This document shows, piece after piece, positions 284 to 64,000 of a stretch of DNA of 64,000 nucleotides. The notes below the pieces were generated by a model. That model made no database searches and was not told where the DNA came from. It was given only the letters and a program-made list of their open reading frames with translations. How positions within the stretch are numbered: the first letter of the stretch is position 1; every line of letters starts with the position of its first letter. The position numbers were made by a program, and so were the translations under genes. Source of the stretch: an uncultured bacterium (GTDB lineage: Bacteria > Patescibacteriota > Minisyncoccia > Phycocordibacterales > GWA1-40-21); contig CAWCTC010000001.1 in the NCBI GenBank assembly GCA_963798465.1, positions 592,465 through 656,464 on the forward strand. Direction: 5' to 3'.

Positions 284-371
284 ACCCGAAAAAATTTTGG
301 CTGACGCATTAAGCTAAATGCTTAATGCCCGTAAAATCTTTGATTTTACATCAGCCAAAACTTTAACGGGT
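284..371 (-). repeat. H1 structured inverted-repeat element copy A
   Basis: Sense arms are ACCCGTTAAAGTTTTGGCTGA ... TCAGCCAAAATTTTTTCGGGT. The interior folds into two hairpins: GTAAAATC/GATTTTAC and GCATTAAGC/GCTTAATGC. Confidence 0.6.
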
Positions 372-2340: not shown

Positions 2341-2371
2341 TTTTGAAGATGTCTAAAAATGACATGGTTTA

Positions 2372-2508
2372 TCCGAGAAAATTTTTGCCAATAAAAATTG
2401 TTTGTGTCGACTTCATAAGTACTTAAATTATAACATAACTAGATAAAATTGTGAGTTTGCTCAAATATGCAAATTTTTAACAAACATTGGCAAAAACTTT
2501 AACGGATT
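2372..2508 (-). repeat. H1 element copy B
   Basis: Arms ATCCGTTAAAGTTTTTGCCAAT ... ATTGGCAAAAATTTTCTCGGAT. The closing pair changes in a compensated way (ACCCG/CGGGT becomes ATCCG/CGGAT). The interior carries TGTTATAAT. Confidence 0.6.
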
Positions 2509-2535
2509 AATTATAACATAGAGAAAATAAGTATA

Positions 2536-3796: not shown

Positions 3797-5831
3797 TTAT
3801 TTTTTCTTTTCCACCCTCTCCTTCAAAACCTTAATCTCATCTCTCAATATCGCCGCGGTTTCAAAATCCAAAATCTTCACCGCTGCGTTCATTTGAATTT
3901 CTTTTTGTTTTATCAGCTTCATTGGGCTCTTTTTCATCATTTCCTCATCAATTCGAACAAGCTCTTTCACGGCTTTGTCATGATCGCTTCTCATATGGTC
4001 TGTGATATCGTGAATCTTTTTGATAATCGTTTTTGGAGTAATGCCGTGCTTTGTATTGTAAGCAATTTGTTTTTCTCTTCTTCTATTTGTCTCACCTATC
4101 GCTCGTTCCATTGAGCCGGTAATACTGTCAGCATAAAGCACCACGCGTCCGAGCAACATTTCTCGCCGCACGTCCGATGGTCTGAATAAGCGAAGTATCG
4201 CTGAACGCAAAAATCCTTCCTTGTCCGCATCAAGAATTCCGATAAATTCAACTTCCGGCAAATCCAAACCTTCTCGCAAAAGGTTTACTCCGACAAGACA
4301 ATCAAACTTCCCTTTTCTGAAAGTTCGTAAGAATATCTATTCTGTCTATTGTTTTTATTTCGCTGTGCAAATATTCTGCTTTCACACCTTTTTCTTTCAA
4401 ATATTCGCTCAAATCTTCCGCCATCTTTTTTGTGAGAGTTGTGGCAATGACTCTTCCGCCGTTTTTCACAACTTTTTCTGTTTCTTCTATAAAATCAAAA
4501 ACTTGAGATTTATTTTTTCCTTTTACTTCGGTAATCGGCTTTACTTCCACAATCGGATCAATCAAGACCAGTCGGACGGATAATTTGCTCCACAATTTTC
4601 TCTGAATTTTCTTTTTCATAATCTCCCGGCGTGGCTGTAGTATAAATAATTTGATTTACTCTTTCTTCAAATTCATCAAACTTCAAAGGTCTGTTGTCTT
4701 TTGCTGATGGAAGACGAAAACCATAGTCAATCAAAGTCTTTTTTCTTGAAGCATCGCCGGCATACATTCCTCTTATCTGAGAAATAGTGACGTGTGATTC
4801 ATCTATAATAGTCAGAAAGTCTGGAGTTCCATCTTCTTTCTTTGGAAAATATTCCAGAAAGTATCTGGTGCTTCGCCCGGTGCTTTGCCGGAAAAATGTC
4901 TTGAATAATTTTCAATTCCATTGCAATAGCCGACTTCTCTTATGAGCGACAAATCGTAAGTTGTTCTTCTTCGAAGTCTTTCTGCTTCAAGATTCTTTCC
5001 CAGCTTTTTTTAATTCTTCAAGTCTGTTCTTCAAGCTCAGCTTTTATACTTTTGAAAGCTCTTTCTTGCTGTTCTTTGTCTGTAATAAAATGTTTTGCAG
5101 GAAAAATAAAAGTTGATTGTATTTCATCTTCAACAAGTTTTCGAGAAACTGAATCAATTCTTGAAATTTTCTTTATTCTATCTTCAGCAAAATCTAAGCG
5201 AATCAAAATCTTTTCATTTACCGGCATGACTTCAATAGAATTTCCAATAGCACGAAAAGTTCCCGGCTTTATATCGGAATTTGTTCTTTCAAAATGAACA
5301 TTGATAAGTTTTTTTATAAGGTCTTGCCTCGTAGTTTTTTCTCCAACTTTCAATTTTAATATTTACTTTTTCATATTCTTCTGGTGAACCCAAACCGTAA
5401 ATACAAGAAACCGATGCGACAATAATCACATCTTTTCTCGTAAGAAGTGCTTGCGTGGAAGCATGGCGAAGTCTGTCTATCTCTTCATTTATCATCGCTT
5501 CCTTTTCAATATAAGTATCGGTGACGGCATATAAGCTTCCGGCTGATAGTAGTCGTAATAAGAAACAAAATAATGCACGGCATTGTCTGGGAAAAATTCT
5601 TTGTACTCTTGTGCGAGCTGAGCTGCGAGAGTTTTGTTGTGAGCGATGACAAGCGTCGGCTTTTGAATTTTTTCAATAACATTTGCAACCGTAAAAGTCT
5701 TTCCGGAGCCAGTAACGCCAAAAAGAGTCTGCTTTTTCAAGACCTTTTTCTAACCCCGCAACCAACTCTTTAATTGCATTCGGTTGATCCCCCGCTGGCT
5801 TATATTCTGCTTTGATTTTGAATTTTGACAT
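3797..5831 (-). pseudogene. uvrB: Excinuclease ABC subunit B, disrupted by about 10 frameshifts
   Basis: Pieces occur in shifting frames: [66 protein letters not shown], and the C-terminal UVR domain. At 4290-4300 an extra A in an A-run breaks QKGKFDCLVGVNLLREG. Confidence 0.85.
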
Positions 5832-7384: not shown

Positions 7385-7407
7385 AAAAGTGATTATACCA
7401 CAAATCA

Positions 7408-8626
<1,219 letters not shown>

Positions 8627-8672
8627 AAGGTTAATATAACACAAAATTACTAGTTAGTAATAATAGTTTGTG

Positions 8673-8801
8673 TGTCTTTGCGAGCGAAGCGAAGCAATCT
8701 AGGTTTGATACATTAATTCTGGATTGCTTTACCACAAGAGTACTTCAATTTTCTAATCGCTTCGCTCAAGAAAATTTGGTCGCGCTTCGCTCGCAAAGAC
8801 A
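8673..8801. mobile_element. MITE-like palindromic element (GTCTTTGCGAGCGAAGCG arms, nested inner IR)
   Basis: TIRs TGTCTTTGCGAGCGAAGCG ... CGCTTCGCTCGCAAAGACA. Inner IR AAGCAATCTAGG ... CTGGATTGCTT. A related copy is at 61427..61523. Confidence 0.7.
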
Positions 8802-8823: not shown

Positions 8824-9630
8824 ATGGAGCAAAAAAGAAAAACTGTCGGCTTAGTGCTTGGAAGCGGAAGCGACCGCGGAATGGCACATATTGGAGTTAT
8901 AAAAACTCTGATTAAAAATAATATTCCGATTGATTATATTTCCGGCACAAGTATCGGCGCCGTTATCGGAGCATATTACGCGCTTCACGGTGAAGTCGAT
9001 ATTCTTGAGGACACTTTCAAGCGTATCATGTCTCGCCCGTGGTATCTGCTCGATTTCGATTTCAAAAAACCGAATTTTCTTTCAAACAGAAATATTTATA
9101 ATCTGTTAAAATTTAATTTCTACAACGACAAAACTTTTTCTGACACAAAAATACCTCTTCGAATAAATGCCACGGATGTAGACTCCGGCAGCCAATATGT
9201 TTTCAAAGACGGAAAAATCATAGACGCCGTCATGTCTTCAATGTCGCTTCCGGGAATATTGCCACCGTATGAAATAGGAGAAAAACATTTGGTTGATGGC
9301 GGACTATCAGATGCAATTCCTGCAGATTTACTTTCTGAATTTAAACCGGATATAATAATAGCTGTAGACCTATATAATACAAAAATAGAACCTCTTTCAA
9401 AATATAATATGAGCACAGTATTGAACAGAGTTTATCAGATATATATTTCAAAACTTTCAGAATTCAGCAAGCAGAATTTCTGCAGAAACTGCGAGAATTA
9501 CATCATCATAAATCCAGATACAAAAGAAAATCTGACAAGCCTGACTTTCAAAAATATAGATAAAAATGTCAAAATCGGGACTGAAGAAACAGAAAAGCAT
9601 ATTGAGGAAATTAAAAAACTGTGCGCCTAA
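8824..9630 (+). CDS. Patatin-like phospholipase
   Basis: GSGSDRG oxyanion motif, GTSIG (GxSxG) nucleophile, DGGLSD catalytic Asp. TGATATAAT lies 9 nt upstream of the ATG. Confidence 0.85.
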   Translation: MEQKRKTVGLVLGSGSDRGMAHIGVIKTLIKNNIPIDYISGTSIGAVIGAYYALHGEVDILEDTFKRIMSRPWYLLDFDFKKPNFLSNRNIYNLLKFNFYNDKTFSDTKIPLRINATDVDSGSQYVFKDGKIIDAVMSSMSLPGILPPYEIGEKHLVDGGLSDAIPADLLSEFKPDIIIAVDLYNTKIEPLSKYNMSTVLNRVYQIYISKLSEFSKQNFCRNCENYIIINPDTKENLTSLTFKNIDKNVKIGTEETEKHIEEIKKLCA

Positions 9631-9640
9631 AATTAAATAC

Positions 9641-9676
9641 AAAAAAGGGCGGCACCTTCGGTGCCGCCCTTTTTTG
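9641..9676. terminator. Bidirectional GC-rich terminator (GGGCGGCACCTTCGGTGCCGCCC)
   Basis: A6 + 10-bp GC stem + T6, between convergent genes. Identical core at 26955..26977; near-identical at 60922..60944. Confidence 0.85.
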
Positions 9677-9684
9677 TATTAATT

Positions 9685-10161
9685 TTAATTACTATTTTTT
9701 ACACTAAGCAAATCAATCTTAAAAATCAAAGTTGAACTTGCTGGAATAGGACCATAATCCGTAAATCCATATCCAAGTGCTGGAGGAATTATAAGAATTC
9801 TTTCTCCTCCGACTTTCATACCTTCGACTCCGATATCCCAGCCTTTGATAACATTTCCTGCTCCGAGTGTAAATGTAAATGGAGCTTTACCGACAGTGCT
9901 GTCAAATTCCTGATCGTTTGATGCAAGAACTCCGGTATAATTTACGGTAACTTCACTTCCTGCTACAGCTGTTGTTCCTGTTCCGACGACAGTATCTTGC
10001 GATTGAAGCTGATCTCCTGATGTTTGTTCTGGTTGCATTGTTGTTTGTGTACTTTGACTATTATTAGAATTTGTAAAAAGTCCGCTTACTAAGCTCGCAC
10101 CGACCAGTACGCCAACGACGACGACTGCTATAGTAACGGCAATTGCTGTTTTTTTATTCAT
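9685..10161 (-). CDS. FKBP-type peptidyl-prolyl isomerase, N-terminally membrane-anchored
   Basis: VTVNYTGVL, FTLGAGNVIKGWDIGVEGMKVGGER, IPPALGYG, and an N-terminal hydrophobic helix. Confidence 0.85.
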   Translation of the reverse strand: MNKKTAIAVTIAVVVVGVLVGASLVSGLFTNSNNSQSTQTTMQPEQTSGDQLQSQDTVVGTGTTAVAGSEVTVNYTGVLASNDQEFDSTVGKAPFTFTLGAGNVIKGWDIGVEGMKVGGERILIIPPALGYGFTDYGPIPASSTLIFKIDLLSVKNSN

Positions 10162-13547: not shown

Positions 13548-14653
13548 TGCGTTTGTATGCAAGAATTAAAAGCTGTGACTTCTGCATTATATTGCGCAAC
13601 TAATATTTTTATTTCAGTGGCCAGATTATTATAAAGTGTCGCAGTAGCATTTTTTTCTGCAACATCGGCATTGTAATCCTGAGTGTCTGTTGAAGGAAGT
13701 GCTGAAATTTTTGCATCCAAATTATTTATCGTCGTCATAAGGCTGTTTGCGGAAATTTTATATTGGCTAACTTTTGCCGCTATCGTAGCGTCGGGCTCCG
13801 TGCAATCAGACAACGGCTTTCCAAAAATTTGCGCCGCTATCCAAACACTTTGGCCTTGATAAGTTCCCTGTTCCGCATCGACTCCGATTTCCGTATAATT
13901 CTTGTCGAGAATATTCGCTCTGTGTCCCGGACTGTTCATCCATGCAGTCAGAAGTCCCTGCGAGCTTCCAAAATTTCCAAGAGCAATATTTTCTCCGATG
14001 GTTATATAACCGTAGCCATTTGTCGCAGCTTCTTTTGAAACATCGTCTCCTGTAGGAGAAATGTGCGCAAAATATTGTTTTGAAAACATATCTTTAACTC
14101 TTATGACAGCAATATTGCTTAAAGTATTATTTTTTTGAAGATTAACAAGCGTCGAATCATTTTCTTCTCTTTCCTGATTCGTCAGATAAATTATTTCATC
14201 GCTATTCAAATCAGTTCCGGTAATATTCGGGTTCGGAACATTAGTATTTGATGGAGAAGTATTTACGGAAGAAGTCGTACTTGGCGTTTCAACATTAGAT
14301 ACAACGGAATTGCTATTCAAAGTCTGAACTGGCTCTTGAACTATTTTTACTGTTGATGAAGCGCTTGGAATCGTATAAGAGGTACAAACTTGCTTTCCCA
14401 AATTTGTTCTGAATTCTCCAGCTTTCCATTCACCGGTGGAAATTGACAAAATATACTGTTTGCAGAAATCGCTTTTTACTTGAGCAATTATATTGTTATT
14501 TATGAAATTGAAAATGTTCGAAATACTGTCGGTCAAAGTCTGAGCTTTTGCTACATTGCAAAATAAGGTCGCTGACAGAAAAACAAGCGATGCTATCAAT
14601 AGTTTTCTGGTGCTTGCCCTGTGCGAATTTTTACATTGTTTTAAATTTAACAT
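13544..14653 (-). CDS. Secreted CAP/SCP/PR-1 (YkwD-like) domain protein
   Basis: Signal-like N-terminus. C-terminal GENIALG...LLTAWMNSPGHRANILDKNYTEIGV. The N-terminus MLNLKQCKNSHRA is encoded by the H2 3' arm. Confidence 0.75.
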   Translation of the reverse strand: MLNLKQCKNSHRASTRKLLIASLVFLSATLFCNVAKAQTLTDSISNIFNFINNNIIAQVKSDFCKQYILSISTGEWKAGEFRTNLGKQVCTSYTIPSASSTVKIVQEPVQTLNSNSVVSNVETPSTTSSVNTSPSNTNVPNPNITGTDLNSDEIIYLTNQEREENDSTLVNLQKNNTLSNIAVIRVKDMFSKQYFAHISPTGDDVSKEAATNGYGYITIGENIALGNFGSSQGLLTAWMNSPGHRANILDKNYTEIGVDAEQGTYQGQSVWIAAQIFGKPLSDCTEPDATIAAKVSQYKISANSLMTTINNLDAKISALPSTDTQDYNADVAEKNATATLYNNLATEIKILVAQYNAEVTAFNSCIQTQ

Positions 14654-14719
14654 GATATTTATTCATTAAATACATGACAAACCTATTTTACATCATTTTT
14701 TAACAAATTCATTACGGGG
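14617..14719 (-). promoter_or_regulatory. H2 element copy C, around the SCP-protein start
   Basis: Arms CCCCGTAATGAATTTGT (14719->14703) and AAAAATTCGCACAGGG (14632->14617). The ATG at 14653 is inside the loop. Confidence 0.5.
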
Positions 14720-14829
14720 TTTTTATTCAAAAACATCATAATGCATATTATACAACATAAACGAAAAACGCACTACAGAAACGCATTTTTGCTCACATTT
14801 TTTTTATTTCCAAAAATATGCACAGATTT

Positions 14830-14921
14830 ACCCGAGAAAATTTTTGTTGATGAAAAAATTATGTATAATTTTTCAGCATTATACTAAGATATATACTGCG
14901 TTAACAAAAACTTTAACGGGT
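14830..14921 (-). repeat. H1 element copy C
   Basis: Arms ACCCGTTAAAGTTTTTGTTAA ... TCAACAAAAATTTTCTCGGGT. Two inner hairpins. The interior carries TAGTATAAT. Confidence 0.6.
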
Positions 14922-14935
14922 GATATAATTGGACC

Positions 14936-15328
14936 ATGAAATTTTTATCGTCTTTTCTCGGCTTCTTGAAATGGCATTATGGCAAAGCCTTAATTTCAAT
15001 TTTTTCATTTTGGAAAAATATTCTTATTTTCCTGTTTAATTTTTTCTCAATAAAAAGTTTAATCGGCAATTTTTTCACTCCATGGAAAAGACTCGCCGAC
15101 AGCTATCCGAAGCATTTTGATCTTGGAGTTTATTTCTCGACTTTCATCGTTAATATCCTGATGAGAATTGTTGGAATAATTTTGAGAACAATACTACTTG
15201 CTATCGGAATTACAACTTGCGCCATTTATATTATTCTTTTACCTTTTACACTTTTGATATGGCTCATATTACCTCCATTTATTGCCGGACTTATCATATA
15301 CGGACTTATACTTTTAATTTTTTCATAA
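14936..15328 (+). CDS. Small polytopic membrane protein, hypothetical
   Basis: Three to four hydrophobic helices. TGATATAAT lies 6 nt upstream of the ATG (leaderless-type arrangement). Confidence 0.6.
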   Translation: MKFLSSFLGFLKWHYGKALISIFSFWKNILIFLFNFFSIKSLIGNFFTPWKRLADSYPKHFDLGVYFSTFIVNILMRIVGIILRTILLAIGITTCAIYIILLPFTLLIWLILPPFIAGLIIYGLILLIFS

Positions 15329-23097: not shown

Positions 23098-23170
23098 TGT
23101 CATTCCCGCGCAGGCGGGAATCCAGGTTTAATTAAATTGATTCTGGATTCCCGTTTTCACGGGAATGACA
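23098..23170. mobile_element. MITE-like palindromic element (GTCATTCCCGCG.AGGCGGGAATCCAG family)
   Basis: TGTCATTCCCGCGCAGGCGGGAATCCAGG ... CTGGATTCCCGTTTTCACGGGAATGACA, 73 bp, within the helicase 5' leader. Confidence 0.75.
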
Positions 23171-24929: not shown

Positions 24930-25043
24930 TGTCATTCCCGCGAAGGCGGGAATCCAGAATTAATAGTGTCGCACTTATATAGGACGATTGTGCGAGTGAC
25001 TTCGCTAAGTCAAACCTAGATTCCCGTATTCACGGGAATGACA
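24930..25043. mobile_element. Composite MITE (GTCATTCCCGCGAAGGCGGGAATCCAG arms with an inserted GTCGCAC...GTGCGAG module)
   Basis: Arms as in 23098..23170 and 62055..62127. The extra internal unit is also found at 35889..35933, 52566..52599 and inside 61427..61523. Confidence 0.7.
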
Positions 25044-25377: not shown

Positions 25378-25482
25378 CCCAGTGTGAATTTTCATCTAAT
25401 TTAAAATTAATATAGAATTATTTTTTATTAGATATATCAATATTAAACAAAAAGAATAATTCTTGTAAAATTCTTTACTGGG
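25378..25482 (-). promoter_or_regulatory. H2 element copy (stand-alone; contains a 9-aa mini-ORF)
   Basis: Arms CCCAGTAAAGAATTTT (25482->25467) and GAAAATTCACACTGGG (25393->25378), a compensated CCCCG/CGGGG to CCCAG/CTGGG change. The ATG at 25395 gives MKIHTGQEK in a different frame from the other copies. Confidence 0.55.
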
Positions 25483-25489
25483 TGTCAAA

Positions 25490-26084: not shown

Positions 26085-26837
26085 TTAAAAAAGTTTTCCG
26101 AGATAATGCTTCAAAGTATAAATCCAGTCTTCATCACCAGCTTCATTTTTCAGCTTTTCAGAAAGAAGCCATTCGAGATATCTTTTATCAGTCTTTGCAA
26201 CTTCCTCTAAAGTTTTATCTTTATATTTTCCAAAATTAAATTTACCGAACAAGCTCGGAGTCGAGGAAATTTCCACCATTTTTTCAATCGCTTTTTCATC
26301 ACTTCCCTCTTCAGCTTTTACTTTTTCAAAAAGTCGCATAAAAAGCGCATAAAGAACTTTCACATCATCTTCGGCTTCGTGTGCGTGAGCATCGACATCA
26401 AGATCCAAATAATATCTCAGATATTGCAGATTGTATTCTGGAATTTTATTTTCTTTGTCCAAAAATCTTGCCACGCGCAAAGTGTCGATATATTTCGGTG
26501 TTTTTATTCCCTCGGCTTCAAGCATTGCGATATCAAACTTCGCATTGTGAGCTACGAGAATTCCATCTTTCAAAATTTTCTTCAATTCTTTCTGCATCTC
26601 ACTTCCCTCAAAACATCCTTTATCAGCGAGCATTTTGTTTGTAATATGGGTAATACTCATAGACTTCACAGACATTGGTAATGGCGGTTTGAAATAACAA
26701 GTTTTGATTTCTTTTGATGTTTTATAGCAAACCTGGCAAAGTCTGTCTTTGCCAATTTCATTTCCAGTCGTTTCAGTATCCAAAAAAATTAATTTTCCTG
26801 TCCCGTGTGAATTTTCGCTTAGTTTTGAATTTATCAT
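26085..26837 (-). CDS. DEDD-type 3'-5' exonuclease (ExoX/DnaQ-like) with DUF3820-like C-terminal domain
   Basis: IFLDTETTG (Exo I), VAHNAKFDIAMLE (Exo II), HEAEDD (Exo III), C-terminal FGKYKDKTLEEVAKTDKRYLEWLL. The N-terminal MINSKLSENSHGTGK is encoded by H2. Confidence 0.75.
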   Translation of the reverse strand: MINSKLSENSHGTGKLIFLDTETTGNEIGKDRLCQVCYKTSKEIKTCYFKPPLPMSVKSMSITHITNKMLADKGCFEGSEMQKELKKILKDGILVAHNAKFDIAMLEAEGIKTPKYIDTLRVARFLDKENKIPEYNLQYLRYYLDLDVDAHAHEAEDDVKVLYALFMRLFEKVKAEEGSDEKAIEKMVEISSTPSLFGKFNFGKYKDKTLEEVAKTDKRYLEWLLSEKLKNEAGDEDWIYTLKHYLGKLF

Positions 26838-26905
26838 AAGATTATGTTTATTAAATATCTTTTATATTTACGATATAGATTATTCTTGTAAAATTCTTTA
26901 CGGGG
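26802..26905 (-). promoter_or_regulatory. H2 element copy, around the exonuclease start
   Basis: Arms CCCCGTAAAGAATTTT (26905->26890) and GAAAATTCACACGGG (26816->26802). TTTACA follows the 5' arm. The ATG at 26837 is in the loop. Confidence 0.55.
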
Positions 26906-26948
26906 TCCATGAACCATATTATACTAAAAATAGTTTAAAAAACTAATC

Positions 26949-26984
26949 AAAAAAGGGCGGCACCTTCGGTGCCGCCCTTTTTTG
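26949..26984. terminator. Bidirectional GC-rich terminator (same core as 9647..9669)
   Basis: AAAAAAGGGCGGCACCTTCGGTGCCGCCCTTTTTTG. Confidence 0.85.
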
Positions 26985-26999
26985 ATTTTGCATTACAAA

Positions 27000-43304: not shown

Positions 43305-43597
43305 AAAATACCAGGTTTTCTTTACGGTATAGGCGTCGGCCACCGCCGACTTCTAAACACAACTCGCTTCACTCAAGTGATTACACTTTCGCGAATCGAT
43401 CTCCGTTAAAAAATAAAGGAACGCTTGCCCTTTGTTCATATCAATTCACATATTTTTTTGATAATAGTCAATACAAGAATCAGTTTATTTTTTTAAAAAA
43501 ATTTTATATAATACAAACATAACTTTTAGTTAAGTGCACTAAATTTTAAACATCCGTAATAGGTGTTTTTTAATTTAGTTTTTATTAATTTTAATTC

Positions 43598-43730
43598 ACC
43601 CGCTAAAGTTTTTGCTGACGTGTTGAAAATGAAAATTTATTAGATTTATCTTTAGTATAAGGTTGTCTATATAAAATAAACATATTCATATAATCTCAAC
43701 ACATTTTCATCAGCAAAAATTTTCTCGGGT
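43598..43730 (+). repeat. H1 element copy D, 10 nt upstream of the ppdK start
   Basis: Arms ACCCGCTAAAGTTTTTGCTGA ... TCAGCAAAAATTTTCTCGGGT. The interior contains TCATATAAT (43689..43694) and a bulged extension TGAAAATG/CATTTTCA. Confidence 0.6.
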
Positions 43731-46445: not shown

Positions 46446-46454
46446 ACAATCAAA

Positions 46455-46489
46455 TTAAAAGGGCGGCCGCTTCGCGGCCGCCCTTTTAA
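46455..46489. terminator. GC-rich terminator (same core as 21532..21554)
   Basis: AAAAGGGCGGCCGCTTCGCGGCCGCCCTTTT. Confidence 0.85.
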
Positions 46490-46584
46490 ATTATTTATAA
46501 AGTAGTACACTTATTCTAAATCAGTTCTTTATAATTCTCTCAAATGAGAGATTAAATATAAAAATCCTTAAGGAGGTTTTGCTT

Positions 46585-56957: not shown

Positions 56958-58538
56958 TCACGATTTCGTGCCATAAAGTTCACGAAACGTCATCCAAATT
57001 TTCTTGTACTTACCTGTCGGAACTTCTTCTTTCAAATGATTGATATCAAAACTCGAATCTTCTTCAACAATTTTTTCAATATGATCGAGAAGCGTGCCGA
57101 TTTTAATTCCTTTTATTTCCAAAATTTCTTTCAAACCCATTCCTTGTGAAAGCATATTTTTGGTTTCTTCTATCGGCGAGATTCTTCTTTTTTTCTTTTT
57201 GTCTATTTTCGTTCCTTCCGGCGGAGCAACTTTTTTCAAAAATTCTTCCTGCTTATTTTTTATTTCTTTGTCGGAAAGAGTATAAAGCCATTGTTTATCG
57301 CCATCTGACATTTCTTTCAAATCTTCATCAAAAATAGAAACATCCTCACGAACTTCAAGCGCATTTTTATTCATTCCAAGCAAACGCAGACCCTCAAGAG
57401 TTCGCACACGAGAAAGCGCAACATAGCCCATTCCTTTTTCAAAAGATTTTGAAAGATCGACTTCAACTGCATCCAAACTCATACCTTGGCTTTTGTGCAC
57501 AGTTATAGCCCAAGCCAAGCGAAGCGGATATTGTGTGATTGTCGCTTTCACTTTTCCTTCATCTTCAATCACCCAATTTACTTTTTCCGGAATAATTATT
57601 TTTCCTGAAGTAAGCATGACTTTCGGTCCATAGTTTGAACACTCAATAACTTTTCCCAAAGTTCCATTTGCATATCCTTCTTCAAAATTATTTTTTACAA
57701 ACATCACTCTCGCTCCTTTTTTCAAACGCAAAACTTCTGGCGCAAGACAGCTTTTTTTCAATGCTTCGACAAGCGGTTTTCTTCCTTTGTCTTCCATTTG
57801 ATATGTAAAAATTTGCCCTGGAAGTTTGTTGAGCTCGGCATCATTAATAGTATCTACATTTATATTGTGAGTGTGAAGTTTTGTCGGCTCAATTCCCTCT
57901 TTCAAACAAGCATTATTTCTTGAATTCAAACAAAGTAAAGATTCTTCGCTCAAATTTCCTCCGCGAATTCCATTTAAAATTTTTATAAACTTGTCATCTT
58001 TATGTCTGAATTGTTCTTCAAGATAGCAAATTTTCAAATTAAGTTTTTTCCAAGCTTCAGACTTATATGCAAATTGAGATTCTTTTTCGCCCACTCTTGA
58101 AACCGGAGGAAGCTGGAAAAAATCTCCGCAAAGTATCACTTGCATTCCACCAAATGGAAGCTGATTTCTTTTCAAATGTCTTGCGATTCTTTCTATCAAA
58201 TCCAAGCGAAAATCGATGAATCATTGAAACCTCATCAATTATCAAAACTTCTGTTTCTCTAAATCTATCATGCAAATATTTCTTACTTTCCAAATCTTCC
58301 AAGATCATATTCTGTAAGTTCATCACGAATACCAAGTCCGCTCCAAGAATGAATCGTCGTTCCACCCATATGAGTCGCCGCAATTCCAGTCGAAGCGGTC
58401 ACGCCAACTTCAACTCCTTTATTTTTAAGGAATTTTATATATTCATTTAAAAGATGCGTTTTACCAGCTACCCGCCGCTCCTGTGATATAGCAGTTGTAT
58501 CCCATCTTCAATATTTCTAGTGCATCCTTTTGGGTCAT
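56958..58538 (-). pseudogene. Pif1/RecD-like superfamily-1 helicase, at least 3 frameshifts (one inside Walker A)
   Basis: [24 protein letters not shown] then GGTAGCTGGTAAAACG, where GSGKT is expected. IIDEVSMI, GGMQVILCGDFFQLPPV, ITVHKSQGMSLD, ALSRVR. Confidence 0.8.
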
Positions 58539-59182: not shown

Positions 59183-59869
59183 TTATTTAATTCCCTTTCT
59201 CCACTCATCAATCAATTTATGATTTCCTGAAAGTAAAACTTTTGGAACCACATATTTCTTCTTTTTATATATCAAAACTTCCGGTCTTGTATAAACTTCA
59301 CTGCTTGAAATTCTTTCTTCTTCAAGAGAGGCTTTGTTTCCAAGAACACCATCTATTTGTCTTGAGACTGAATCCATAATGAGCATAGCTGGAAGTTCCC
59401 CACCGGTAAGCACAAATGGACCAACAGTAATTTTTTCTGTTTTGAATATTTTATTCACTCTTTCATCTATCCCTTCATATCTTCCAGAAATAAAAATAAT
59501 ATCTGTAAATTTTTTTGCAGTTTCTTTTGCATAAGCAGTATCAAATTGTTTTCCACCTGGACTTAAAAATATAATTTTTACTTTATGACTTTTGCCTTTT
59601 GACTTTTTACTTGCTGAAAGCGCTTTCTCAATTGCTTTTGCAACTGGCTCGGCTTGCATCACCATTCCTGGACCACCGCCATAAGGAATATCGTCAACTC
59701 TTTTATATGGCTTGTCTTTCTTTTTTTGCGAAGGTGAAACCTTCGCAAAATCGCGTGGATTATAAAAACTTACCTTCACCTTTTTCTCTCTGATTGCCCG
59801 TGCCAAAATCGACTCATTCAAATATGAGGTAAAGGATTCTGGAAATAATGTGATTATGTGAAAATTCAC
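59183..59869 (-). CDS. trmD: tRNA (guanine37-N1)-methyltransferase
   Basis: The GTG start at 59869 gives (M)NFHIITLFPESF, the canonical TrmD N-terminus. GGGPGMVM, SPGGK, GRYEGIDERV. The track TTG start at 59908 would add 13 aa encoded by the H2 arm. Confidence 0.9.
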   Translation of the reverse strand: MNFHIITLFPESFTSYLNESILARAIREKKVKVSFYNPRDFAKVSPSQKKKDKPYKRVDDIPYGGGPGMVMQAEPVAKAIEKALSASKKSKGKSHKVKIIFLSPGGKQFDTAYAKETAKKFTDIIFISGRYEGIDERVNKIFKTEKITVGPFVLTGGELPAMLIMDSVSRQIDGVLGNKASLEEERISSSEVYTRPEVLIYKKKKYVVPKVLLSGNHKLIDEWRKGIK

Positions 59870-60007
59870 AGGGTAGTGAAATTTCAAATTGTTTTTATTG
59901 CCAAACAACTTGAAATTTTAATTAATGTTTATTTGATAAATTATAAATCTATTGATATATATAACTTTTCTAAAAACAAGGCAATGATTTGAAATTCTAC
60001 TACCCTG
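59869..60007 (-). promoter_or_regulatory. H2 element copy E (21-nt arms) ending at the trmD GTG
   Basis: CAGGGTAGTAGAATTTCAAAT (60007->59987) pairs with ATTTGAAATTTCACTACCCTG (59889->59869): 19 Watson-Crick pairs, 1 GU, 1 mismatch. CCCCG/CGGGG is replaced by CAGGG/CCCTG. Confidence 0.6.
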
Positions 60008-60014
60008 TTCATTT

Positions 60015-60142
60015 ACCCGAGAAAATTTTTGCCAATAAAAATTGCGCGACTTTAAGGTTTAACTAGATAACATTTATAACTCTAACCCAATATCACAAAA
60101 ATCGCAATTTTTGCTAGCGCGTTGGCAAAAACTTTAACGGGT
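60015..60142 (-). repeat. H1 element copy E
   Basis: Arms ACCCGTTAAAGTTTTTGCCAA ... TTGGCAAAAATTTTCTCGGGT. Flanks extend the stem (AAAT/ATTT). Confidence 0.6.
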
Positions 60143-60908: not shown

Positions 60909-60915
60909 AATTAAT

Positions 60916-60950
60916 TATAAAGGGCGGCACCTCCGGTGCCGCCCTTTATA
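60916..60950. terminator. GC-rich terminator (GGGCGGCACCTCCGGTGCCGCCC variant)
   Basis: Differs in the loop by one nucleotide from the 9647 and 26955 copies. Confidence 0.8.
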
Positions 60951-60970
60951 ATTAATTTTTTGAACTTTAA

Positions 60971-61426: not shown

Positions 61427-61523
61427 TGTCTTTGCGAGCATAGCGAAGTCACGTCGCATAACCGTCCTTATAATGTGGCGTTGTTAATTAATTCTGGATT
61501 GCTTCGCTATGCTCGCAAAGACA
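61427..61523. mobile_element. Composite MITE between rpsP and the KH gene
   Basis: TGTCTTTGCGAGCATAGCGAAG ... CTTCGCTATGCTCGCAAAGACA, with the GTCACGTCGCATAACC module inside. Confidence 0.7.
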
Positions 61524-62054: not shown

Positions 62055-62127
62055 TGTCATTCCCGCGAAGGCGGGAATCCAGGTTGAATTGAATTAATTC
62101 TGGATTCCCGCCTTCGCGGGAATGACA
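62055..62127. mobile_element. MITE-like palindromic element (GTCATTCCCGCGAAGGCGGGAATCCAG family)
   Basis: TGTCATTCCCGCGAAGGCGGGAATCCAGG ... CTGGATTCCCGCCTTCGCGGGAATGACA, 73 bp. Confidence 0.75.
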
Positions 62128-62174: not shown

Positions 62175-64000
62175 ATGAAAAAAGATAAACAATTCTGGAG
62201 GAAGGACAGTAATGACAGCAGGAAAACTGAACATCAGGGAAAACTGAAGACTCTGACAGGAAAAATCAAAGCAATTCGCGGCCACACCGCCTATTTTATA
62301 GCCGACACAAACAATCTTGAAGTTGAAATCCCGACAAGACAGATAAACACTGCAATGTCCGGCGACAAGGTTGAAATAAAACTATTCAAGAAAAATAAAA
62401 CCGGAGTTCATGAAGGCGAAGTAATAAAAGTCATAAGTCGTGCAAAAAATTATTTTGTCGGCGTGATTGAAATTTCCGAAAAAGGAATTCTCGTCGTGCC
62501 CGATGATAGAAGAGTAAAAATTTCCGTAAAAATCGCAAAAGAAAAAGCCGGCACGCTGAAAAATGACGACAAAGTCAGAGTTAAAATTACAAAATGGGTT
62601 CAAACACCTGGTTTTTCTGAAGGAGAAATTGTAAATATTCTTGGAAAAAAAGGCGACAATTCTACAGAAATGAATTCCATCGCGGTAGATAAAGGTTTCG
62701 ACATGGATTTTTCGGAAAGAGTTTTAAATGAATCGCACAATATTTTCGAGCATAACAAAACAATTTCGCCCGAGGAAATTTCAAAAAGAAAAGATTTGAG
62801 AAATACTTTCACTTGCACGATTGATCCAAAAACCGCAAAAGATTTTGACGATGCCATTTCATTCAAGAAACTTCCAAATGGAAATCTTGAAATCGGTATT
62901 CATATCGCCGACGTTTCTTATTATGTCACTGAAAAAAGTGAGCTCGACAAAGAAGCTTACGAACGCGGTTGTTCGGTTTATTTGCCCGATAGAACGATTC
63001 CAATGCTTCCCTTTGAGCTTTCGGACAATCTTTGCTCTTTGAGTGAAGGCGACGAAAAACTTGCCTTTTCTGCAATTTTTGAAATCACCCCCCATGCAAA
63101 AGTCCATACAAGATGGTTTGGGAAATCCGTCATCAAATCCGCAAAAAGATTCACTTATGAAAGCGCGCAGGAAATATTAGATAGTGGCAACTCCTCTTTG
63201 TCATTGCAAGTGGAACGAAGTAATCCAGAAAAATTAGAAATAGATTCCCGTCTTCACGGGAATGACAACATGAAATATTTTGAAGCACTTGATACTTTGA
63301 ACAAGATTTCCAAAATATTCAGAAAGGAAAAAACGCAGAAAGGCGCGATAGATTTTGAATCAGGAAGAAATCGCTTTTGAGCTCGACACGGAAGGCAGAC
63401 CAATCAGGATTTACAAAAAACAAAGACTCGACACGCACAAGCTCGTCGAGGAATTCATGCTTCTCGCAAATAAAGAAGTCGCGGAGTTCGTTTATAAATA
63501 TGAAAAAAATTCCGGAAAACTTTTTCCTCTGCCATATCGTATTCACGATTTGCCAGACAAAGAAAGAATCGCTGAGCTTGCAGTTTTCGTAAAAGCTTTA
63601 GGCCATGAGCTTTTCATCGGACCAATCTGGAAATGTCACCGGCAAGGATATGCAGGCGCTTTTTGAGCAGATTGAAGGCAAGGCTGAGGAAGCACTGGTA
63701 AAAACCGCAGCGATCCGCTCGATGTCAAAAGCTATTTATTCAACAAAAAATATCGGTCACTTCGGACTTGGCTTTTGAATATTACGCGCACTTCACCTCG
63801 CCTATCCGAAGATATCCGGATCTTTTAGTCCACAGAATTTTAAATAAAATTTTAACAAAAGAGAGCATCGCCCACGAAAAGTCTGCTGACCTCGTGGCAA
63901 GAGAAAAAAATCTCGCATTTTATGAAAAAGCTTGTCTTCACTCGACCGACCAAGAAATAAAAGCTTCAGAAGCTGAGCGCGATGGCAGAAAATACAAACA
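62175..64000 (+). pseudogene. rnr: Ribonuclease R, at least 3 frameshifts and an in-frame MITE insertion; runs off the window end
   Basis: N-terminal OB/CSD region. RNB motifs CTIDPKTAKDFDDAIS, IGIHIADVSYYV and [23 protein letters not shown] occur in different frames. Breaks are near 63365, 63610 and 63775. Confidence 0.8.
63199..63267 (+). mobile_element. 69-bp MITE inserted in frame in the RNase R coding sequence
   Basis: TGTCATTGCAAGTGGAACGAAGTAATCCAG ... AGATTCCCGTCTTCACGGGAATGACA. 69 nt is 23 codons, read through as SLQVERSNPEKLEIDSRLHGNDN without a stop. Confidence 0.7.

Follow-up and report, generated by a model that had tools for sequence, protein, structure and literature searches.

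The sequence analyzed here, called the window below, is a stretch of 64,000 nucleotides from contig CAWCTC010000001.1 of an uncultured bacterium of the Patescibacteriota (positions 592,465 to 656,464). The genes in the window have essentially no Shine-Dalgarno sequences, and many have a -10 box 6-11 nt before the ATG, which indicates that their mRNAs are leaderless. Stop and start codons of internal genes often overlap or adjoin. The window holds five copies (A to E) of a hairpin element, H1, in which two conserved arms enclose a variable interior; copy D stands directly in front of ppdK (Table 1). We consider it likely that H1 is a widespread family of small palindromic "foldback" insertion elements of Patescibacteria, resembling REPINs and Correia elements and specialized for the starts of leaderless genes.

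The five copies of H1

The five copies stand where a preliminary description of this DNA had placed them, except that copy B, given there as 2372-2508, is shifted by one base. The density reported there also holds, since a two-arm pattern matches exactly these five stretches in 64 kb and 0.00 matches are expected in shuffled sequences. The arms pair in register over 21 positions, as described, with a 2x2 mismatch of TT opposite CT (or TT/TT) at arm positions 6-7 and a G.T pair at position 11. Past one further mismatch the stem is extended by two T:A pairs, and the whole unit can be written as TTn-ACCCG...CGGGT-nAA with a total stem of 21-23 bp.

Table 1 Positions of H1 copies, associated signals, and other repeats in the window
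Feature	Position	Strand	Description
H1 copy A	284..371	-	Short S2 type, 88 nt; closing stem and two inner hairpins; minimum free energy -47.9 kcal/mol, z -10.5
3' of copy A		-	11-codon open reading frame (ORF), then H2 element, then uvrA
H1 copy B	2371..2507	-	Long B-type, 137 nt; closing pairs ATCCG/CGGAT
Extended -10 box TGtTATAAT	2510..2518	-	Ends 2 nt ahead of copy B; the family-wide -10 position in long copies
Promoter-like site within copy B	2427..2455	-	CTCACA, 17 nt, TATAAT, with TG; 10/12 matches in promoter scan
Short ORF within copy B	2369..2416	-	Encodes MKSTQTIFIGKNFLG*; begins 10 nt past the internal -10 box
H1 copy C	14830..14921	-	Short S1 type, 92 nt; interior inverted relative to arms
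H1 copy D	43598..43730	+	Long D-type, 133 nt; between -10-like TTTAAT (43590-43595) and ppdK ATG (43740)
H1 copy E	60015..60142	-	Long B-like type, 128 nt; within rpsP-khpA-trmD cluster
H2 (second palindromic family, ~105 nt)	156-259, 2237-2340, 14617-14720, 25378-25483, 26801-26906	- (all)	Five copies
MITE-like insertion	59869-60007	-	139 nt; 28-nt inverted ends CAGGGTAGT.GAATTTCAAAT; TGAA duplication at 60008-60011 and 59865-59868
Unit 5' of copy D	43507-43571		TATAAT box, ~40 nt, hairpin with T-run
23-nt hairpin unit TCATTCCCG(n6)CGGGAATC	23100-23168, 24932-25041, 62057-62125, 63243-63265		Seven copies, mostly in inverted pairs
Third inverted-repeat family TGTCTTTGCGAGCGAAGCG ... CGCTTCGCTCGCAAAGACA	8673-8801, 61427-61523		Arms 53-91 nt apart; adjoin gene starts
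Hairpins AAAAGGGCGGCACC nnn GGTGCCGCCCTTTT	9630-9686, 26945-26987, 46452-46492, 60909-60957		Near-identical, perfect; at gene ends
Split or truncated genes	3797-5740, 7405-8644, 56958-58205, 62175-63666		uvrB, tgt, and RNase R each in several ORFs; PIF1-like helicase without N-terminal part

All five copies fold to a long hairpin (z-scores -3.7 to -10.5). Contrary to the preliminary description, the interiors are not unrelated to each other: those of A and C are of the same three-way-junction type, and B, D, and E fall into subfamilies with conserved subterminal helices. Nor does a TATAAT-like hexamer in each interior mean much, as TAnnnT is expected by chance in 45-95 nt at 35% GC (about 0.03 per position by our own estimate). 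Copy D indeed reads toward ppdK, the next gene, but copy C points away from the CAP/SCP gene assigned to it. The partner of copy C is a divergent ORF of 130 amino acids (14936-15328, plus strand) that begins 14 nt from the ACCCG (5') arm, and the orthologous filled site in L163 is arranged likewise (L numbers denote fetched loci). Copies A and B do lie on the side of uvrA and the histidine kinase gene, respectively, though a short ORF and the second repeat family, H2, stand in between. The short ORF in copy B crosses the 3' arm, and its stop codon TAA is made of the last T of the element and the following AA. In the relatives L184 and L140, the 3' end of the element at the copy E site abuts the trmD ATG.

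No hit reaches the Rfam gathering threshold in the window, and no hit at E<=5 overlaps an H1 copy; gathering scans of seven loci gave tRNAs only. This agrees with the earlier remark that H1 was not recognized as any known riboswitch or noncoding RNA class. Literature searches directed at leaders, RNA motifs, or repeats of the candidate phyla radiation (CPR) or at Correia elements gave no description of H1.

Covariation and substitution pattern of the stems

An alignment of 27 S copies (the short type described below) forms a three-way junction in which 96.2% of the cells are paired, compared with 84.9% in shuffles, and 19 pairs are changed on both sides. The covariation score is 0.346, as against 0.120 in shuffles; it was reached by 0 of 500 shuffles, and slid controls gave 0.04-0.08. 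The covariation noticed among the five copies thus persists with more copies aligned, and the compensations in the distal stem and in the closing pairs are genuine and recur in relatives. Positions 16-21 of the distal part of the closing stem, P1, show two to four pair types each and are 86-96% Watson-Crick. The change from ACCCG/CGGGT to ATCCG/CGGAT occurs in five copies belonging to four different types, and helix P2 of the D-types alternates between GTGTTGA:TCAACAC and GTTATTG:CAATAAC.

The kind of substitution is as important as its amount. In functional RNA helices, G.U pairs are tolerated and A.C pairs are avoided. The H1 stems do not follow this pattern: they are 96-98% Watson-Crick, and the counts of G.U versus A.C are 4 versus 8, 5 versus 9, and 7 versus 20. 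As G.U and A.C are equally rare and mismatches are few, the stems have the signature of a DNA palindrome rather than that of an RNA helix. The covariation therefore proves pairing of nucleic acid, not RNA pairing in particular. As in a REPIN, where two inverted REPs form a hairpin with compensated changes, the two arms of H1 pair and change together.

The preliminary description had taken these features to indicate a selected secondary structure rather than a miniature inverted-repeat transposable element (MITE). Its first half stands, because the structure is conserved and compensated far beyond chance in comparison with the shuffled S alignments. Its second half is not supported: at orthologous sites H1 comes and goes or is exchanged for another type, the genes that it precedes are unrelated, and its G.U pairs are no more frequent than its A.C pairs. 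Neither a known family of terminal inverted repeats nor target-site duplications were found.

Filled, empty, and exchanged orthologous sites

For each copy, the 150 nt on either side were joined into one query and searched against all fetched loci, and many orthologous sites with contiguous flanks were found. At ruvA, homologous D-type copies are present in L065 and L182, and the site is empty in L121, L036, and L217, the flanks of which are 86-87% identical to those of L065; the empty allele reads ...GTAGTATCATTAAACTTATG..., in which TATCAT, TAAACTT, and ATG follow each other. At uL3, L125, L168, and L232 have an S-type copy and L172 a D-type copy, with flanks about 90% identical. Empty alleles also occur at murG, fpg, trmD, and other genes. 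The empty sites are ordinary leaderless promoters, with a -10 box, about 7 nt, and the ATG. The insertion break falls in TT(n)^AAA(T)G. No target-site duplication of 2-9 bp is present in the pairs of filled and empty sites, the TTn and nAA flanks being complementary and not direct repeats.

For ppdK, six relatives were fetched through their PpdK proteins, and the upstream regions were aligned. A D-type copy is found in the window and in L037 (PLOL01, bog_1341), which is near-identical to copy D including the flanks. L239 (91% PpdK identity) has at the same point an S-type H1 with the arms reversed, and L235 (90%) has at the exact point of H1 an unrelated 45-nt palindrome, TGAAGTTACATCGCGCC...GCGCAATGTAACTTCA (about 1150-1195). 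The site is empty in L238 (94%, the closest relative found), L234, L236, and L237, where TTTTAATAATTA is directly followed by AAAAATGG. H1 is accordingly not kept upstream of ppdK orthologs, being absent in four of the six relatives and replaced in two. Gain, loss, and swapping at this and the other sites indicate that H1 is no conserved regulator of ppdK or of any gene. Judging from these alignments, copy D appears to be a lineage-specific insertion, and the ppdK site a hot spot for several palindromic families.

The unit on the 5' side of copy D (43507-43571) is recognizably conserved as a whole upstream of ppdK in five of the six relatives, and L238 has just its 3' hairpin and T-run. The unit is independent of H1 and possibly represents a small RNA or an attenuator.

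Size, range, and types of the family

Scanning of the genome collection with a degenerate two-arm pattern gave 113 stretches, of which about 48 are true members and the rest are chance matches in AT-rich DNA. A stricter pattern gave at least 120 stretches in the metagenome collection. In total, at least 185 instances of H1, at least 175 of them distinct, were collected across 233 fetched loci. Since arm positions 2-15 are fixed by the search patterns, their conservation in the fetched copies follows in part from the search itself, and the unbiased evidence lies in the window, the other positions, and the flanks. The true members come from metagenome-assembled genomes labeled Patescibacteria group, Paceibacterota, Taylorbacteria, Minisyncoccia, and Saccharibacteria, while a few carry only the label "bacterium" or "Nanoarchaeota". 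No viral contig matches the stricter pattern, and a viral origin was rejected on this ground.

Each H1 consists of one A arm (TTnACCCGTTAAAGTTTT..) and one B arm (..AAAATTTTCTCGGGTnAA), with 178 AB or BA combinations and no AA or BB. The distal module is variable and can be a tetraloop, a two-hairpin junction, or a long irregular helix. The length ranges from about 40 to 300 bp and is mostly 85-140 bp. Mini-hairpins of about 40 nt have only a short loop (3-4 nt). The S type (83-93 nt; copies A and C) has the closing stem and two hairpins, the M type (104-110 nt) has a conserved C-rich interior, and the L type (126-140 nt; copies B, D, and E) comprises subtypes B and D. Longer forms reach 295 nt.

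The interior of the M-type copies (L207, L229, L131, L157, L178, L200, L223, and L224) is G-poor and conserved, and ends in ..CACCTCCCTAG. This end resembles an anti-Shine-Dalgarno sequence (GGGAGGTG on the opposite strand). The M-type copies have no Rfam match. In L173 (5990-6175), arms of the H1 type surround a complete tRNA-Val(cac) gene on the opposite strand, and the flanks look like the two halves of another tRNA; a host tRNA was rejected, as ARAGORN run with introns calls none. A hammerhead or twister core, prompted by CUGA...GAAA around the three-way junction, was dismissed because of a misfit in the core and the lack of an Rfam match. A pseudoknot, considered for the X-Y...X'-Y' order in the long types, is sterically impossible with a loop 3 of 0 nt; the predicted fold places AUUUUCA/AAUUUUU of these types in a 7-nt bulge.

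Position of H1 at gene starts

In the 109 L copies, the upstream 8 nt are T-A-T-A-A-T-T-A with TG two positions further up (consensus TGnTATAATTA), and in 47 of them 2 nt separate the end of a TAnnnT hexamer from the element. The 3' flank is AAA, usually followed by T-G, so that an ATG starts 2 nt past the element in 65 of the 109. The next ORF is co-oriented in 89 of 98 cases. From the spacing in leaderless genes, transcription from the upstream -10 box would be expected to begin at about element position 5 of the long copies.

The S copies are arranged differently. Their interior is always directed at the adjacent gene, which starts 6-15 nt away, and the arms run either way: in 31 copies (S1) the gene lies beside the A arm on the other strand, versus 12 of the S2 arrangement.

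H1 itself stays outside coding sequences, and its last T together with the usual following AA makes a TAA stop codon. The genes after H1 are mutually unrelated (ruvA, murG, murJ, trmD, rsmI, comM, uL3, uS7, uS10, pilin, glutaredoxin, and ppdK). H1 behaves as an insertion-type element for which the interval from the -10 box to the ATG is a hot-spot target. For the five window copies, GC skew is uninformative as to a replication-strand bias. Two other roles for the arms were rejected. CGGGT as a Shine-Dalgarno sequence is at odds with the absence of such usage in the window, and the 2-nt spacing is wrong. Arms as -35 or UP elements would fit the divergent gene of copy C (TTAACA, 17 nt, TATAAT), not the family in general.

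H2 and other repeats

The second family, H2, has ten further copies in loci such as L097, L115, L129, L133, and L175. The arms of H2 are ACCCCGTAAAGAATTT on the 5' side and GAAAATTCACACGGGG on the 3' side. Between them stand a -10-like box and an ATG, with a constant offset of 67-72 (114 in one copy of 151 nt), and the 3' arm lies in frame within the first ~14 codons. UvrA, the DEDD exonuclease, the CAP protein, GltX, and the IleS/ValS-like synthetase consequently all begin with M..K.SENSHGA.... The orthologous gene in L025 has no H2. H2 often follows directly after H1, as at copies A and B and in L175, a contig that within 6.3 kb has H1 three times and H2 once.

The MITE-like insertion falls within codons 1-2 of trmD and separates the gene from H1 copy E. 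What results is an orphan ORF of 23 codons and, at 59869, a new start codon, GTG; in L184 and L140 the junction CGGGTAAATGAATTTTCAT is intact. One of the 23-nt hairpin units is in frame in the RNase R ORF, where it encodes ..DSRLHGNDN.., and these units give weak, sub-threshold Rfam matches to Wolbachia sRNA 46. The AAAAGGGCGGCACC/GGTGCCGCCCTTTT hairpins look like shared bidirectional terminators and have sub-threshold Rfam matches to the Thr leader. The split uvrB, tgt, and RNase R genes and the shortened PIF1-like helicase gene may be pseudogenes, assembly frameshifts, or interruptions by small repeats.

Comparison with known elements

Correia elements (CREE or nemis) of Neisseria are described as units of about 100-155 bp with terminal inverted repeats around a core, present in many copies by genes (PMC2649163). 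Promoters can arise at their ends, the elements are co-transcribed and fold to long hairpins that RNase III binds or cuts, and their presence varies from strain to strain (PMC2649163). H1 shares the small size, the terminal inverted repeats, the many gene-adjacent copies, and the variable presence. It differs in having no target duplication and a variable, modular interior, whereas in CREE a TA target is duplicated and the core is conserved and contains an IHF site. H1 also takes a near-fixed place, 2 nt from the -10 box and from the ATG in the long copies counted above, and its arms are conserved across several named groups of Patescibacteria. RNase III may act on H1 in a similar way.

REPINs and BIMEs, which are REP doublets mobilized by RAYT (REP-associated tyrosine transposases), likewise have two inverted conserved arms, a more variable spacer, and a hairpin structure. 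Changes in the arms of REPINs are reportedly compensated and their mismatches conserved, the target is not duplicated, and the elements persist for long in a lineage (Bertels and Rainey 2011). No RAYT was found in the fetched sequence, where the one Y1 enzyme is of IS200, and H1 lacks a 5' tetranucleotide of the GTAG type. REPs are mostly found at the 3' ends of genes, whereas H1 stands at 5' ends in strict orientation. Rickettsia palindromic elements are reportedly tolerated at sensitive gene sites, including in-frame insertions (Ogata et al. 2000). In this respect they are matched by H2 and by the TCATTCCCG hairpin that lies within the RNase R ORF; H1 itself lies outside coding sequence and has no sequence relation to those elements.

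The intervening sequences of rRNA have a long closing stem and a variable interior and are tolerated as an RNase III processing site. They serve as the model for route (b) below, though they sit in rRNA and processing of H1 would be by extension from them. Integron attC sites, too, resemble H1 as folded single-strand hairpins of similar length with conserved basal mismatches and a variable terminal structure. H1 differs from them, as it has no RYYYAAC/GTTRRRY core pair (GTT of the A arm faces CTC) and no cassette arrays, its copies being scattered at gene starts.

Like MITEs, H1 has terminal inverted repeats (arms of 21-23 bp), small size (68-295 bp in this comparison), many copies, and presence or absence at ruvA, ppdK, murG, fpg, and trmD. 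It lacks their target-site duplication and the homogeneous interior derived from a parent transposon, as it occurs in several types that also vary within a type; no parent element was found. Taken together, we place H1 among the small palindromic repeat or insertion elements and not in a new RNA class.

Proposed mode of insertion and tolerance

In the 5' leader of its gene, each H1 copy is more probably a mobile element than a regulatory RNA dedicated to that gene. The base of the stem, which is conserved and asymmetric, may be the recognition structure, probably as a hairpin of single-stranded DNA, for a structure-specific mobilizing enzyme, as in REPINs. Once inserted, H1 would be transcribed as the whole 5' leader of the gene, from the start predicted above for the long copies. 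Because essential genes (trmD, murG, and the uL3 operon) carry H1, the leader must permit translation. Three routes seem most likely. A hairpin at the 5' terminus could leave GGGUAA-AUG free and protect the mRNA (route a). Processing of the double-stranded RNA, of the RNase III type, could trim the leader (route b). In the B-types, the internal promoter could drive a short ORF with almost no leader, and the overlap of its TAA with the ATG of the gene would allow termination and reinitiation (route c). CPR bacteria retain RNase III and RNase J (PMC12641178). The stem of H1 has the double-stranded length of about 20 bp that RNase III needs, and its cleavage is a prediction.

Several points weigh against H1 as a mobile insertion element. 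The differences between filled and empty alleles are compatible with gain or with precise loss at every site. The arms are nearly invariant across distant lineages, which also fits strong functional constraint, and the S interior keeps the direction of the gene whatever the orientation of the arms, which hints at a constraint at the level of RNA or gene. The interiors differ within one genome, unlike those of a recent MITE burst. A mobilizing enzyme is not apparent either, as no transposase or recombinase is found among the window ORFs of at least 100 amino acids, and in tblastn over about 1.6 Mb of fetched loci the sole Y1 transposase is a TnpA of the IS200 family (108.8 bits on NF033573, and 22 bits on the RAYT model with its cutoff of 80). 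Finally, we infer the continued expression of H1-bearing host genes, and likewise their transcription starts and processing. The IS200-family gene lies in L175 (3973-4404, minus strand), has GC-rich end hairpins, and is about 170 nt from an H1 copy. It was rejected as the mobilizer of H1, as its end hairpins (CCCCGCCCGG.. and CCCCGGG..) are unrelated to the H1 arms.

Alternative explanations

Could H1 instead be a cis-regulatory leader RNA, a hairpin kept under selection to regulate the downstream gene as a riboswitch, thermometer, or protein-binding leader? We regard this as unlikely, though several observations favor it: the covariation is strong and the folds are stable, the long copies are in sense orientation, the G.U pair and internal loop are conserved, the interior of the short copies follows the direction of the gene, and orthologous copies (window copy C and that of L163) hold the structure by compensated changes. 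However, the closest relatives have no H1 at the same gene, or have other types or palindromes there, and the downstream genes are unrelated. G.U is no commoner than A.C, as described above, and in 31 of 43 short copies the gene-sense RNA would have A.C and AG/AA instead of G.U and UU/CU. Moreover, the start predicted for the long copies lies inside the 5' arm, and the ACCC:GGGU pairs would not form in that RNA. A portable expression cassette is still more doubtful in our judgment. Its main role would be to provide a promoter together with a short leaderless ORF, the stop of which overlaps the ATG of the gene (UAAAUG) for reinitiation, with the 5' arm silencing read-through transcripts. The arrangement is real in the B-types, which have an extended -10 box, an ATG 7-11 nt further on, and an ORF of 15-38 codons ending in the TAA of GGGTAAATG. 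An in-frame ATG ORF occurs in 31 of 106 long copies versus 9-10 in the other two frames, with a shared C-terminus ..QTIFIGKNFLG*. The promoter scan picks the internal site of copy B, the frequent ATG 2 nt past long copies fits coupling, and the related H2 holds a promoter-like stretch and the gene's own ATG inside. But nearly all of the ATG ORFs listed are in B-types. Most D-types in this listing have none, nor do copies D and E on hand reading, and the short types are too small for an ORF. The spacing may also be a property of the target rather than a sign of coupling, since empty sites have the AAATG as well.

The remaining two proposals concern DNA, and we give both very little credence. 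In an inverton, the arms would be recombination sites at which a DNA invertase flips the promoter-bearing interior to switch genes. Inverted repeats do flank interiors with -10-like boxes, and the short interiors do occur in both orientations relative to the arms (31 S1 versus 12 S2). Yet no flipped state of B or D was found in 241 million metagenome records that gave at least 120 unflipped stretches, and the orientation of the short interiors is fixed relative to the adjacent gene. These interiors also have no promoter, the arms carry fixed mismatches, and the 59 window ORFs (49 of at least 100 amino acids beyond the first ten, and those ten) contain no recombinase domain. Paired operators, with a regulator binding both arms and looping the enclosed promoter, would account for the near-invariant arms, for their flanking of promoter-like sequences 90-140 bp apart, and for the similar motif ACCCCGTAAAGAATTT about 26 nt upstream of -10 boxes. 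However, the distal stem and the inner hairpins show compensated changes, which require pairing of nucleic acid and not protein binding. The mini-variants with a loop of 3-4 nt leave no room for a DNA loop or a promoter, and a single arm is not a palindrome.

Implications

Gene expression in CPR bacteria and Patescibacteria is almost unstudied, and the genome of the window runs on leaderless promoters. The short interval from the -10 box to the ATG is a recurrent site of palindromic families, at essential genes too. For annotation, H1 and H2 should be masked, since they yield spurious short ORFs and N-terminal extensions and mislead start-codon calls.

A bolder version of the insertion-element reading, improbable in our view but worth stating, is that H1 and H2 form a new class of mobile "leader elements". 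These would seek out the points at which transcription of leaderless genes begins and might enter the melted promoter region as hairpins of single-stranded DNA. They would be tolerated through removal or neutralization of the hairpin at the RNA level or through a promoter and start codon of their own. If so, they would be for bacterial 5' leaders what introns are elsewhere, and would shape gene starts in the CPR to a major extent. If H1 is, as we favor, a family of foldback insertion elements at leaderless gene starts, such elements would imply a structure-specific DNA enzyme with a very precise target. They would also be a main source of 5'-leader diversity in the lineage, and a natural test of how ribosomes adapted to leaderless mRNAs without Shine-Dalgarno sequences deal with structured leaders.

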